IMG/VR virus record: IMGVR_UViG_2859788636_000004 | DNA length: 21,627 bases | Strand: one strand, 5' to 3' | From: a virus | Lineage: Duplodnaviria > Heunggongvirae > Uroviricota > Caudoviricetes | Shown: piece by piece, positions 5,144 to 21,191 of the stretch | Position numbering within the stretch: position 1 is the stretch's first letter | Layout of the letters: each line of letters starts with the position of its first letter | The notes under the pieces: model-generated | What the model saw: only the letters and a program-made list of their open reading frames with translations | What the model was told of the DNA's origin: nothing | Databases searched by the model: none | Program-made: the position numbers and the translations under genes

Positions 5144-5186
5144 TGAGGTGTACTGGCAATAGCGGACACTACCATTTGTTCTTTTT

Positions 5187-6005
5187 TTAAGCAGCCATCT
5201 GATGATATTTTTCCCTGAAGGCTGCCGGGGAGATATTCCCCAGACGAGAGTGACGACGCTGACGATTGTAGAAAATCTCAATGTATTCCCGTATTACTGA
5301 GGTGGCTTCATCCCGGTTATTAAAACGATAGTGGCTCAGGCTCTCATTTTTCAGCGTTCCCCAGAAGCTTTCCATCGGAGCGTTGTCGTAACAGTTACCT
5401 TTACGCGACATTGATGTTTTCAGACCAGACTGCTCCTGTATGACCCGGTAATCGTATGCGCAGTACTGTGAACCTCGATCAGAGTGGTGGATTAGCCCGG
5501 CAGGTGGGCGCTGGCTCCTGAGCGCCATAAACAGGGCTTTACCTGTCAGCTCTTTTGTCATGCGCTCTCCCATGGCGTAGCCGACAATTTCACACGTATA
5601 AACATCTTTGATGCCAGCGAGGTACAACCATCCCTCCTGTGTGGCAACATACGTCAGGTCCGCCACCCAGACCTGATTTGGTGCTGTAGGAGCGAACGTC
5701 TGGTTCAGCAGATTTGGCGCAACTGGCAGATTGTGGTTCGGGTTCGTAGTCGCTCTGAACTTGCGTTTCTGCTTACAGCGTAGCCTCAGCTCCTTACGAA
5801 GACGTGCCAGTCGGTCACGACCAACGATGATGCCATTCTCTGCCAGCTCCGTCTGGAGCCGCCGGGTTCCATATGTTTCGCGAGTGCGGATATGTGCCAC
5901 CTTAATCTCCAGTTTTAGCCGCTCATCACTTTGTTTTCTGTCTGAGGGTTCATGCTGTACCCAGTTGTAATAACCGCTCCTGGATACACCAAATACCTGA
6001 CACAT
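5187..6005 (-). CDS. IS600 OrfB transposase (DDE)
   Basis: 272-aa ORF, IS3-family integrase-core sequence (...IHHSDRGSQYCAYDY...SRKGNCYDNAPMESFWGTLK...). Confidence 0.9.
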   Translation of the reverse strand: MCQVFGVSRSGYYNWVQHEPSDRKQSDERLKLEIKVAHIRTRETYGTRRLQTELAENGIIVGRDRLARLRKELRLRCKQKRKFRATTNPNHNLPVAPNLLNQTFAPTAPNQVWVADLTYVATQEGWLYLAGIKDVYTCEIVGYAMGERMTKELTGKALFMALRSQRPPAGLIHHSDRGSQYCAYDYRVIQEQSGLKTSMSRKGNCYDNAPMESFWGTLKNESLSHYRFNNRDEATSVIREYIEIFYNRQRRHSRLGNISPAAFREKYHQMAA

Positions 6006-6040
6006 CGCTTCAATGGGAAATTGTTGTCGCCATTGTTCGA

Positions 6041-6343
6041 TTAACGCGTATTTTTCAGCGACTCCTGTGCAAAATACGCTGTTGCTTTTTTTAATATATC
6101 TCGCTCAAGGCGAGCTTCATTTAACGCCTTACGCAGTTGCAGAATTTCAGATTCCAGTTCAGCCACCGTGCGGGAACCAGGAGTACCGAGCCCTTTTCTG
6201 GCGGCGGTAACCCATTGTCCTAAAGTGCCTTCAGGAAGAGATAATCGGGAAGCGCCTTCACTGATCGAAAGTTGATTTTCAAGAACCGTTCTGACAGCTT
6301 CGGCTTTGAACTCTTTAGAGTAACGTTGGGTTTTTCTGCTCAT
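6041..6343 (-). CDS. IS600 OrfA (HTH transposase subunit)
   Basis: 100-aa [37 protein letters not shown]... with leucine-zipper-like C-terminus; A7G slippery run near its 3' end. Confidence 0.9.
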
Positions 6344-6407
6344 TATTAGCTCCTTCTGATGCCATTCTATTTCAGGAAGGAGTGTCCGTTAAACTCAGGC
6401 TACCTCA

Positions 6408-6658
6408 GAGCGCTTATCCGATTTTTGATCGTATTGAAGAAATGGCATGGGCTCGTCACTACCAGCAGATCGTTCGTGAAGAAAAAGAAACGGAACTGGC
6501 GGACGACCTGGAAAAAGGTCTGCCTCAGCACCTGTTTGAATCGCTCTGCATCGACCATTTGCAACGCCACGGTGCCAATAAACAGGCAATCAGCCACGCA
6601 TTTGATGATGATGTTGAGTTTCAGGAGCGCATGGCAGAACACATCCGGTACATGGCTG
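6408..6658 (+). pseudogene. Orphan internal gene fragment (about 83 codons) trapped between IS600 copy A and IS911
   Basis: Open frame ...[83 protein letters not shown] runs from the IS600 boundary into IS911 with no start or stop of its own; family not recognised. Confidence 0.3.
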
Positions 6659-6730
6659 TGAAGTGGCACACTGAATTTGGCCACCTGAACAGAGGTGATA
6701 TGCTCACCTCAGAACAACACAGGTGCTCCA

Positions 6731-7033
6731 ATGAAAAAAAGAAATTTTAGCGCAGAGTTTAAACGCGAATCCGCTCAACTGGTTGTTGACCAGAAATACA
6801 CGGTGGCAGATGCCGCCAAAGCTATGGATGTTGGCCTTTCCACAATGACAAGATGGGTCAAACAACTGCGTGATGAGCGTCAGGGCAAAACACCAAAAGC
6901 CTCCCCCATTACCCCGGAACAAATTGAAATCCGTGAGCTCAGGAAAAAGCTACAACGCATTGAAATGGAGAATGAAATATTAAAAAAGGCTACCGCGCTC
7001 TTGATGTCAGACTCCCTGAACAGTTCTCGATAA
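6731..7033 (+). CDS. IS911 OrfA
   Basis: [49 protein letters not shown]...; A6G slippery motif TTAAAAAAGG near 6977-6986. Confidence 0.9.
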
Positions 7034-18235: not shown

Positions 18236-18601
18236 ATGATTGATGTCTTAGGGCCGGAGAAACGCAGACGGCGTACCACACAGGAAAAGATCGCAATTGT
18301 TCAGCAGAGCTTTGAACCGGGGATGACGGTCTCCCTCGTTGCCCGGCAACATGGTGTAGCAGCCAGCCAGTTATTTCTCTGGCGTAAGCAATACCAGGAA
18401 GGAAGTCTTACTGCTGTGGCCGCCGGAGAACAGGTTGTTCCTGCCTCTGAACTTGCTGCCGCCATGAAGCAGATTAAAGAACTCCAGCGCCTGCTCGGCA
18501 AGAAAACGATGAAAAATGAACTCCTCAAAGAAGCCGTTGAATATGGACGGGCAAAAAAGTGGATAGCGCACGCGCCCTTATTGCCCGGGGATGGGGAGTA
18601 A
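18236..18601 (+). CDS. insC: IS2 OrfA (InsC)
   Basis: Protein identical to the copy at 1569-1934. Confidence 0.9.
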
Positions 18602-19464
18602 GCTTAGTCAGCCGTTGTCTCCGGGTGTCGCGTGCGCAGTTGCACGTCATTCTCAGACGAACCGATGACTGGATGGATGGCCGCCGCAGTCGTCACACTG
18701 ATGATACGGATGTGCTTCTCCGTATACACCATGTTATCGGAGAGCTGCCCACGTATGGTTATCGTCGGGTATGGGCGCTGCTTCGCAGACAGGCAGAACT
18801 TGATGGTATGCCTGCGATCAATGCCAAACGTGTTTACCGGCTCATGCGCCAGAATGCGCTGTTGCTTGAGCGAAAACCTGCTGTACCGCCATCGAAACGG
18901 GCACATACAGGCAGAGTGGCCGTGAAAGAAAGCAATCAGCGATGGTGCTCTGACGGGTTCGAGTTCTGCTGTGATAACGGAGAGAGACTGCGTGTCACGT
19001 TCGCGCTGGACTGCTGTGATCGTGAGGCACTGCACTGGGCGGTGACTACCGGCGGCTTCAACAGTGAAACAGTACAGGACGTCATGCTGGGAGCAGTGGA
19101 ACGCCGCTTCGGCAACGATCTTCCGTCGTCTCCAGTGGAGTGGCTGACGGATAATGGTTCATGCTACCGGGCTAATGAAACACGCCAGTTCGCCCGGATG
19201 TTGGGACTTGAACCGAAGAACACGGCGGTGCGGAGTCCGGAGAGTAACGGAATAGCAGAGAGCTTCGTGAAAACGATAAAGCGTGACTACATCAGTATCA
19301 TGCCCAAACCAGACGGGTTAACGGCAGCAAAGAACCTTGCAGAGGCGTTCGAGCATTATAACGAATGGCATCCGCATAGTGCGCTGGGTTATCGCTCGCC
19401 ACGGGAATATCTGCGGCAGCGGGCTTGTAATGGGTTAAGTGATAACAGATGTCTGGAAATATAG
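18559..19464 (+). CDS. insD: IS2 OrfB (InsD)
   Basis: Protein identical to the copy at 1892-2797. Confidence 0.9.
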
Positions 19465-19991
19465 GGGCAAATCCAGCATCATGTTCGAACACCACTCCAA
19501 CATCTGTTTGAACACCTGTTAAATTTCTCTCTTGTTTTGTTTGAACATCTGCTTCCTTTCTGCTTCTTCTGGCCTGAACAGATGCTTTTCCTGCGGCTGA
19601 TTTTTTGGTTAATTTTTCTCTGACAGATGCCAGATCTTCCTCAATCCGAAGATGCATCCATTCGTCGCCGTTATCACAAAAAAACTCCCGCAAGGATGGT
19701 TCAACATCAACCCATCGCTCGTTAGTCAGACGGGCAATTTTTGCCAACCTGTTTTTGGGTATTGGCTTTCCTGTTTGCCAGTAATTGAACATCAGCAACA
19801 AATACGCGCCGTGCTCCTCTGCTGACAAATGCATGGTGTCAGCCAGGTAATCAGCTATGTACAGTTGCATGTATGGTAATGCGGCCATAATTGCCCCGTA
19901 TGATGCTACCCGGTTGCTTAGAATAAGTGAGGTAGCCTGAGTTTAACGGACACTCCTTCCTGAAATAGAATGGCATCAGAAGGAGCTAATA

Positions 19992-20294
19992 ATGAGCAGA
20001 AAAACCCAACGTTACTCTAAAGAGTTCAAAGCCGAAGCTGTCAGAACGGTTCTTGAAAATCAACTTTCGATCAGTGAAGGCGCTTCCCGATTATCCCTTC
20101 CTGAAGGCACTTTAGGACAATGGGTTACCGCCGCCAGAAAAGGGCTCGGTACTCCTGGTTCCCGCACGGTGGCTGAACTGGAATCTGAAATTCTGCAACT
20201 GCGTAAGGCGTTAAATGAAGCTCGCCTTGAGCGAGATATATTAAAAAAAGCAACAGTGTATTTTGCACAGGAGTCGCTGAAAAATACGCGTTAA
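19992..20294 (+). CDS. IS600 OrfA
   Basis: 100 aa; one substitution (A to V) relative to copies A and B. Confidence 0.9.
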   Translation: MSRKTQRYSKEFKAEAVRTVLENQLSISEGASRLSLPEGTLGQWVTAARKGLGTPGSRTVAELESEILQLRKALNEARLERDILKKATVYFAQESLKNTR

Positions 20295-20329
20295 TCGAAC
20301 AATGGCGACAACAATTTCCCATTGAAGCG

Positions 20330-21148
20330 ATGTGTCAGGTATTTGGTGTATCCAGGAGCGGTTATTACAACTGGGTACAGCATGAACCCTCAGACAGAAA
20401 ACAAAGTGATGAGCGGCTAACACTGGAGATTAAGGTGGCACATATCCGCACTCGCGAAACATATGGAACCCGGCGGCTCCAGACGGAGCTGGCAGAGAAT
20501 GGCATCATCGTTGGTCGTGACCGACTGGCACGTCTTCGTAAGGAGCTGAGGCTACGCTGTAAGCAGAAACGCAAGTTCAGAGCGACTACGAACCCGAACC
20601 ACAATCTGCCAGTTGCGCCAAATCTGCTGAACCAGACGTTCGCTCCTACAGCACCAAATCAGGTCTGGGTGGCGGACCTGACGTATGTTGCCACACAGGA
20701 GGGATGGTTGTACCTCGCTGGCATCAAAGATGTTTATACGTGTGAAATTGTCGGCTACGCCATGGGAGAGCGCATGACAAAAGAGCTGACAGGTAAAGCC
20801 CTGTTTATGGCGCTCAGGAGCCAGCGCCCACCTGCCGGGCTAATCCACCACTCTGATCGAGGTTCACAGTACTGCGCATACGATTACCGGGTCATACAGG
20901 AGCAGTCTGGTCTGAAAACATCAATGTCGCGTAAAGGTAACTGTTACGACAACGCTCCGATGGAAAGCTTCTGGGGAACGCTGAAAAATGAGAGCCTGAG
21001 CCACTATCGTTTTAATAACCGGGATGAAGCCATCTCAGTAATACGGGAATACATTGAGATTTTCTACAATCGTCAGCGTCGTCACTCTCGTCTGGGGAAT
21101 ATCTCCCCGGCAGCCTTCAGGGAAAAATATCATCAGATGGCTGCTTAA
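20330..21148 (+). CDS. IS600 OrfB transposase
   Basis: 272 aa; a few substitutions relative to copies A and B. Confidence 0.9.
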   Translation: MCQVFGVSRSGYYNWVQHEPSDRKQSDERLTLEIKVAHIRTRETYGTRRLQTELAENGIIVGRDRLARLRKELRLRCKQKRKFRATTNPNHNLPVAPNLLNQTFAPTAPNQVWVADLTYVATQEGWLYLAGIKDVYTCEIVGYAMGERMTKELTGKALFMALRSQRPPAGLIHHSDRGSQYCAYDYRVIQEQSGLKTSMSRKGNCYDNAPMESFWGTLKNESLSHYRFNNRDEAISVIREYIEIFYNRQRRHSRLGNISPAAFREKYHQMAA

Positions 21149-21191
21149 AAAAAGAACAAATGGTAGTGTCCGCTATTGCCAGTACACCTCA

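Follow-up and report, generated by a model that had tools for sequence, protein, structure and literature searches.

What has become of the target-site duplications that are missing from insertion sequences (ISs) in a genome crowded with such elements? The question is raised by a stretch of 21,627 nucleotides (nt), IMG/VR virus record IMGVR_UViG_2859788636_000004 (hereafter the window), which carries three copies of IS600 – A, B and C – and one of IS911, and in which only IS600 copy B lies between the two halves of a duplication. An earlier reading of this sequence (the original prediction) took A, C and IS911 to be secondary joints and not primary insertions, and placed at least one partner copy outside the window. 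The first part of this interpretation stands, the two flanks of each element coming from separate sites in reference prophages; the second part – outside partners, reached through inversion – does not, because all three elements have flanks collinear with intact Escherichia coli Rac-like prophages, which points to deletion. We argue that A, C and IS911 probably began as ordinary insertions and afterwards lost the DNA on one side.

The window is a decayed, IS-crowded remnant of a Rac-like lambdoid prophage of Shigella flexneri, ending in the chromosomal gene pgrR: positions 1–15139 are 100% identical to S. flexneri LR213452.1 (locus L008), and that record also contains the right end (L014). As intact comparators we used two E. 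coli Rac-like prophages, L001 (E. coli FDAARGOS_944) and L002, whose gene order is tRNAs, ORF6N, Q-like and, further on, ydaV, ydaU, ydaT, repressor region, Rha, kilR/ydaE, recE, gam and, further on, xis, int, ttcA and, beyond these, mppA and pgrR. The window reads instead Rha, IS2, kilR, ydaE and a truncated recE; copy A; a truncated gam; IS911; a truncated 534-residue integrase-like gene (int534), the tRNAs, an ORF6N gene interrupted by B, the Q-like gene, IS1 and, further on, ydaV and a ydaU interrupted by IS2; copy C; and a truncated pgrR. Self-comparison returned three repeats of 1264 bp, two of 1331 bp, and one of 309 bp that ties the window start to 12689–12997. The features on which the argument turns are as follows.

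3715–5139, plus strand: truncated recE, 474 amino acids (aa), Exonuc_VIII (Pfam PF06630), its final three codons and stop (ALR, stop) supplied by an IS600 stub
5132–5143, plus strand: stub X, TGAGGTAGCCTG, 12 nt corresponding to nt 1–12 of the left terminal inverted repeat (IRL) of IS600; a fourth IS600 copy
5144–6407, minus strand: IS600 copy A, a probable deletion joint, the tip of its right terminal inverted repeat (IRR) against stub X and its IRL tip against the G of the gam ATG
6408–6658, plus strand: gam-like fragment, the AT of its ATG lost and its 3′ end cut by IS911
6659–7907, plus strand: IS911, 1249 bp, probable hybrid of two direct copies, gam site (CTG) on the left and int534 site (AGT) on the right
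7908–8094, minus strand: start of int534, about 70 nt, with its upstream region, the remainder probably lost in the IS911 deletion
9124–10387, minus strand: IS600 copy B, within an ORF6N-domain gene, CTG duplication at 9121–9123 and 10388–10390
19476–19927, minus strand: 5′ part of ydaU (DUF1376, the 'O-like' gene), ending 12 nt short of the start codon at the C joint
19928–21191, plus strand: IS600 copy C, a probable deletion or excision joint, IRL against ydaU (AAG) and IRR against pgrR (GGA)
21192–21627, minus strand: first 436 nt of the chromosomal gene pgrR (LysR-family regulator), truncated by C

The three IS600 copies, each 1264 bp long, are 99.7–99.8% identical to one another and share imperfect terminal inverted repeats starting TGAGGT (IRL TGAGGTAGCC, IRR TGAGGTGTAC). 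Each contains an overlapping orfA (HTH) and orfB (DDE/rve), with open reading frames (ORFs) of 100 aa and 272 aa that match Pfam HTH_Tnp_1 and rve; the RefSeq annotation mentions a programmed frameshift in IS600, and the end segments used in our joint queries are about 98–99% identical to RefSeq loci annotated 'IS3-like element IS600 family transposase'. An apparent 22-nt extension of the repeat shared by B and C proved to be an artefact of ungapped extension; BLAST extends it by 2 nt only.

Read on the plus strand, the flanks are CTG/GAG for A, CTG/CTG for B and AAG/GGA for C, so that a 3-bp duplication is present in B only. Self-comparison and empty sites thus bear out the copies, positions and flanks of the original prediction, and also its view of B as a clean insertion: the CTG is single in the empty site (L001 8001–8003), the same joint occurs in nine other fetched loci, and B is a simple, untouched primary insertion. 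In one locus (L025) B is fused to another IS600 fragment. IS600 copies elsewhere in the fetched loci are flanked by 3-bp duplications, GTT and GTG; A and C would owe their lack of one to later events. The original prediction had allowed that duplications might appear once the element boundaries were moved by 1–2 bp. The boundaries, however, are anchored by empty sites in E. coli prophages independently of the repeat alignment, and shifts of up to 3 bp on either side gave no consistent duplication: none of 3–5 bp for C, and for A a single chance AGC match at an inconsistent shift of −3/+1.

Relatives retain the parental copies to differing extents: both sites for IS911, the pgrR half only for C, and for A only a longer remnant of X. 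IS911 in the window, 99.0% identical to RefSeq-annotated IS911, is flanked by CTG and AGT and so lacks a duplication, as had been noted. Its left flank belongs to gam. In two S. flexneri loci (L003 and L006) IS911 shares this left joint and runs on its right into CTG-AAACC, which gives a CTG duplication, and in four others (L004, L005, L007 and L010) the site is empty and reads ATGGCTGAAACC; the primary insertion in gam thus produced a CTG duplication. The right flank, AGTAGTAGACGCC, lies about 70 nt into int534, beside the tRNA cluster. This gene is uninterrupted in seven loci (L019, L020, L026, L027, L029, L033 and L034); a look-up with the ORF6N fragment returned short metagenome contigs only, and these provided the empty int534 site. 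IS911 occurs at the identical right joint, AGTAGTAGACG, in L031 and L032. Of the two parental sites, that in gam is the one at which an intact duplication was seen.

The gam copy and the int534 copy occur together on the same strand, as direct repeats, in CP026772.1, and in CP026765.1 the two sites are separated by 15,219 bp that hold an AAA_24 gene, xis-like and int fragments, two IS1 copies, sitABCD and tail-fibre remnants. Against the uninterrupted reference the flanks of the window's IS911 are in collinear order. The presence of both parental sites in sister strains, in direct orientation, suggests that the window's IS911 arose by recombination between the two, an event that would have cost the lineage 15.2 kb. 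This 15.2-kb deletion, sitABCD included, is confined to the source strain.

Several observations touch on the same region. The sitABCD iron/manganese transporter genes are lost from this locus of LR213452.1, and sister strains carry them in the interval concerned. The left flanks of IS911 at int534 differ in L031 and L032, and in L009 IS911 at gam is accompanied by an adjacent deletion. With orphan joints in L031, L032, L009 and L025, the locus has been reshaped repeatedly between S. flexneri strains.

Copy C joins two sites that are far apart in the reference. On its left, window 19477–19927 aligns to L002 14120–14570, within ydaU (L002 13725–14582); on its right, window 21192–21627 aligns to L002 29898–30333, within pgrR (L002 29434–30333). 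Both flanks (at L002 14570 and 29898) keep the reference orientation, and 15.3 kb of L002 are absent between them. The joint, 12 nt inside ydaU, is one of the breaks in prophage gene order at which the original prediction correctly placed these elements. The called 160-aa product of pgrR (Pfam HTH_1 and LysR_substrate) stops inside IS600. The empty sites read GAC/GGA/CGCC in pgrR and ...AATAAG/CACAAAC in ydaU.

Evidence that C started in pgrR came from species-representative genomes: when these were scanned for the stretch of pgrR immediately left of the break, three intact sites and one informative locus, L037 (CP178302.1), emerged. In this locus the 3′ part of pgrR, ending in GAC GGA, runs straight into the IRL of an IS600 oriented as C. 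The empty pgrR sites of L002, L036, L038 and L039 contain the GGA once; L037 has it in front of the IRL, the window behind the IRR. The two GGAs are therefore the halves of a genuine 3-bp duplication, now divided between two genomes. C thus entered pgrR by ordinary insertion and afterwards exchanged the flank on its IRL side for that in ydaU.

The C joint is present in 14 fetched loci besides the window and is common to all typical S. flexneri genomes examined, its 160-aa joint protein being indexed in 128 blocks of the collection; L039, labelled S. flexneri, has an intact pgrR site. A search of 5426 complete E. coli genomes, a set also used for A, found the C joint in none. Protein searches of S. 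flexneri genomes found no 3′ fragment of pgrR beside IS600. A query with full-length PgrR returned full-length homologues only, and a C-terminal query matched fragments from E. coli lineages that carry frameshifts or deletions free of ISs, and others from short contigs that end in IS1; none of these lay beside IS600. In some short-read assemblies (L041 and L047, nt 1–50) an IS1 interrupts pgrR 5 nt away from the position at which IS600 inserted, and mppA-ynaI-uspE-fnr follow downstream; pgrR may have been hit by ISs repeatedly, or this may be the reciprocal joint in a modified form.

Copy A is set in a more compact arrangement. Window 3685–5131 aligns to L001 20736–22182, within recE, which in L001 then goes on CTCGCGG; window 6408–6658 aligns to L001 23989–24239, within the Gam coding sequence (23987–24283). 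The flanks of A thus map to L001 22182 and 23989 with reference order and orientation kept, and recE has lost roughly 0.5 kb from its 3′ end (536 bp by L002 coordinates). The 474-aa gene that A truncates, the second of the breaks in gene order, is recE. Between recE and the IRR tip of A stand the 12 nt of stub X, which match the IRL of IS600 at 12 of 12 positions and are not present in the recE of L001. The CTG read as the left flank of A is therefore nt 10–12 of this stub, and not target DNA.

A contig of IMG/VR, L052 (IMG taxon 2537561620), retains a longer remnant of X. It has the same joint between recE and the IRL of X and the same joint between the IRL of A and GAG of gam, yet it keeps nt 1–191 of X before the IRR tip of A. 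The sole difference from S. flexneri is how far the deletion reaches leftward from that tip, the nested pattern expected of deletions anchored at an IS end. It is thus partly documented that deletions anchored at the tips of A shortened X, leaving 12 nt in S. flexneri and 191 nt in the other lineage. The A joint is present in all eight S. flexneri loci compared (L003–L010, from eight independent complete chromosomes), and its 474-aa joint protein is indexed in 865 blocks of the collection; among the complete E. coli genomes it was found in none. One apparent E. coli match (H26) turned out to be an independent IS600 insertion elsewhere in recE.

Further observations concern A and its neighbours. 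In E. coli 2014C-3051 (L035, 4535–5798) an independent IS600 with an AAG duplication lies in the full-length recE of the Rac prophage, so that recE has been struck by IS600 more than once. In L052 (8776–10085) copy A is itself broken by a 1310-bp element of the IS3 family with TGAACCGCCCCGGG ends, which we take to be IS629-like, and 11 nt of IS600 are missing there. At the other end of A, a gam-like ORF of 122 aa (window 6382–6750) is called from a GTG inside the left end of IS600 and runs into IS911; in strains without IS911 a Gam protein of 106 aa is called, its N-terminus encoded by the IS.

Flanks that retain reference order and orientation are what one expects when an interval has been deleted or excised between direct copies, or deleted from an IS end; by either route the partner half-sites would have been removed and not moved by inversion, and the joints would lack a duplication because the adjacent DNA was lost later. 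In the history that we favour, the element would first be joined by another copy of its own kind, inserted nearby as a direct repeat; homologous recombination between the pair would then drop the interval together with one copy and leave a hybrid element. For IS911 the partners would be the gam copy, with its CTG duplication, and the int534 copy, both recorded in sister strains. For C, of which a part is documented, insertion in pgrR would have made the GGA duplication, and its left half would have been exchanged with that of a copy at the 5′ end of ydaU, with the removal of at least 15 kb. For A, again documented in part, X would have inserted in recE in the opposite orientation to A, and deletions from the tips of A would have taken the 3′ end of recE and most of X. 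If pure deletion at A and C is true, no IS600 copy should be flanked by pgrR-3′...CCCAGACGGA, by AAGCACAAACAGC (the ydaU start, on the ydaT side), by CCTCTCGCGGAG (the 3′ part of recE) or by ...CCAGTGATGAG (upstream of gam).

Several points weigh against this history. No genome was found with the simple insertions that would be parental to the joints – A with GAG on both sides, X with CCT, or the ydaU copy with AAG – and the steps at A and C are ones that we infer. The IS911 copies are identical bar one private single-nucleotide polymorphism (SNP), and the IS600 copies differ at five sites in no informative pattern; with so few SNPs no crossover point can be mapped, and recombination and a transposase-made deletion look alike. 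The pgrR copy in L037 has as its other flank the xis/int region of a prophage adjoining yebY, so that in at least one lineage this copy has also joined in a rearrangement other than deletion. Finally, the K-12 map places fnr and other genes in the interval from pgrR to the Rac attachment site, and fnr is a gene that S. flexneri has kept; the segment removed at C may accordingly have been excised and re-inserted elsewhere, possibly at another IS600.

The last two points lead to the alternative of inversion, in which A and C would be the ends of inversions or reciprocal exchanges with IS600 copies outside the window and the orphan half-duplications would persist elsewhere in the genome. There is something to be said for it: the DNA removed at C probably holds genes that the species still needs; the IS1 at the left edge of the window ties the prophage to the distant yobD-manXYZ; the pgrR copy of L037 has recombined with a copy beside a distant prophage; and IS-bounded inversions exist in Shigella chromosomes, one of them attributed to IS600 (PMC1550401). 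Such exchanges would, however, leave IS600 copies flanked by pgrR-3′-GGA, AAG-CACAAACAGC, CCT-CTCGCGG or ...GTGATGAG, and the protein searches found no 3′ fragment of pgrR by IS600 in S. flexneri, with its 160-aa 5′ counterpart indexed in 128 blocks of the collection. A search of IMG/VR for four predicted reciprocal or ancestral joints (IRR/AAG-ydaU, IRR/CCT-recE, gam...GAG/IRR and IRL/GAC-X) likewise gave zero matches in that collection, which does contain the real joints; the real C joint, run as a positive control, gave two. A single inversion would moreover reverse one flank, whereas those of A and C both follow the reference, and at A only about 0.5 kb is missing. We therefore consider inversion very unlikely, although the observation that A and C cannot be paired with each other by one inversion was sound. 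More remote still is the notion that the missing duplications reflect misplaced boundaries or mis-assembly across repeats. Three near-identical repeats of 1.26 kb could in principle mislead an assembler, and no evidence that they did was found; with boundaries fixed by empty sites, no duplication on shifting by 3 bp either way, and A and C joints identical in many independently assembled complete chromosomes, an artefact is scarcely credible.

A closer competitor would have the transposase make the same products in one step, an end of A (or C) being transferred to a nearby target on the same molecule and the interval deleted; for A the target would be the inverted repeat of X. Each deletion does stop exactly at an intact IS tip, and the two end points in X (nt 191 and nt 12), with one fixed end at the IRR of A, form the nested pattern classic for IS-adjacent deletions. 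Identical products would nonetheless come from a new insertion and subsequent recombination between direct repeats, as is usually assumed for copy-out/paste-in elements, and with so few SNPs the sequence does not separate the two routes; we regard the one-step route as possible but doubtful. Precedent comes from IS911, for which targeted insertion next to IR-like sequences has been described (Loot et al. 2002, 2004; Rousseau et al. 2008, as cited in PMC7986276 and PMC2909936). Here too the element belongs to the IS3 family, and one of its ends abuts the inverted repeat of a sibling. In our case, however, the junction lies inside the sibling, at nt 12 or nt 191 – within the inverted repeat or the body of the element and not beside the repeat tip – and the orientation is opposite; furthermore, this targeting was shown for IS911 and not for IS600. 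By analogy a transposase route to the junction of A and X is conceivable. That the nested end points are footprints of self-targeting, the end of one IS600 having been transferred repeatedly into the left end of its sibling, as happens with IS911 and IR-like targets in plasmid assays, is an analogy that we think unlikely to hold; were it true, it would offer IS3-family elements a route by which to erode each other in IS-crowded genomes. As to a preference of IS600 for targets that resemble its IRL, no conclusion was drawn, the examples having been picked by BLAST for that very similarity.

Beyond the joints, the window holds further IS copies and a tRNA cluster. Stub X had been passed over in the original prediction, as had two copies of IS2 and one of IS1, these three all flanked by duplications.

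1–309, plus strand: 3′ part of an IS1 within which the window begins; other flank yobD-manXYZ; no 9-bp duplication
1478–2808, plus strand: IS2 copy 1, 1331 bp, 5-bp duplication GCTGC, a simple insertion downstream of the Rha-like gene
8095–8405, minus strand: prophage tRNA cluster, Gly-TCC, Thr-TGT, Arg-TCT and one with anticodon CAT (ARAGORN); annotated likewise in L001 and L002
12230–12997, plus strand: complete IS1, 768 bp, 9-bp duplication TACTAACAG, a simple insertion
18145–19475, plus strand: IS2 copy 2, 5-bp duplication GCATC, a simple insertion in ydaU; empty site at L001 16235–16239

For the complete IS1, whose two sides overlap at L001 9834–9843, as for IS2 copy 2 and B, the duplicated sequence is single in the empty site. 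The IS1 at the left edge (99% identical to 12689–12997) is complete in L008 at 5828–6595, where its flanks do not match, and is confined, among the loci compared, to the source strain, five sister loci being without IS1 there. Strain-specific, without a duplication and joined to yobD-manXYZ, it marks a further strain-specific rearrangement joint. The IS2 copies (99.6% identity to RefSeq 'IS3-like element IS2') are identical to each other, in direct orientation and 16.7 kb apart, and form a ready substrate for another deletion. The tRNA cluster sits between the int534 remnant and the ORF6N gene; its CAT-anticodon tRNA is annotated by RefSeq as tRNA-Ile in E. coli relatives.

Deletions of this kind have parallels. 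In experimentally evolved E. coli, IS150 reportedly causes deletions next to itself in the rbs operon through a second insertion and recombination between the direct copies. The likeness to the present locus is close – one end at an intact IS tip, no duplication, collinear flanks – and for IS911 both parental sites are documented in sister strains; at A and C, by contrast, the two-copy intermediates were not found, and the route is the one we infer. In Shigella itself, IS1, IS2, IS4, IS600 and IS911 have expanded, insertion sites are common across S. flexneri, and deletions and rearrangements between IS copies are on record (Hawkey et al. 2020, PMC7373316; Yang et al. 2005, as cited there); S. 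flexneri strains are also reported to differ by an inversion associated with IS600 (Nie et al. 2006, PMC1550401). Our locus shares with these accounts the five expanded IS types, the mixture of shared sites and strain-specific joints, and the loss of genes through homologous IS copies. It does not differ from them in kind; what it adds is stub X, the recovery of half a duplication from a second genome, and the loss of sitABCD in a single strain.

The locus is thus one more instance of IS-mediated deletion in Shigella, a process already known, and its import beyond itself is small. It serves as a worked example of how IS flanks are to be read in an IS-rich genome. An apparent flank may be the stub of another IS copy, and an absent duplication marks the later loss of adjoining DNA, a history that empty sites and sister strains allow one to recover. 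For S. flexneri the consequence reaches across the species, in which IS joints truncate recE and pgrR.

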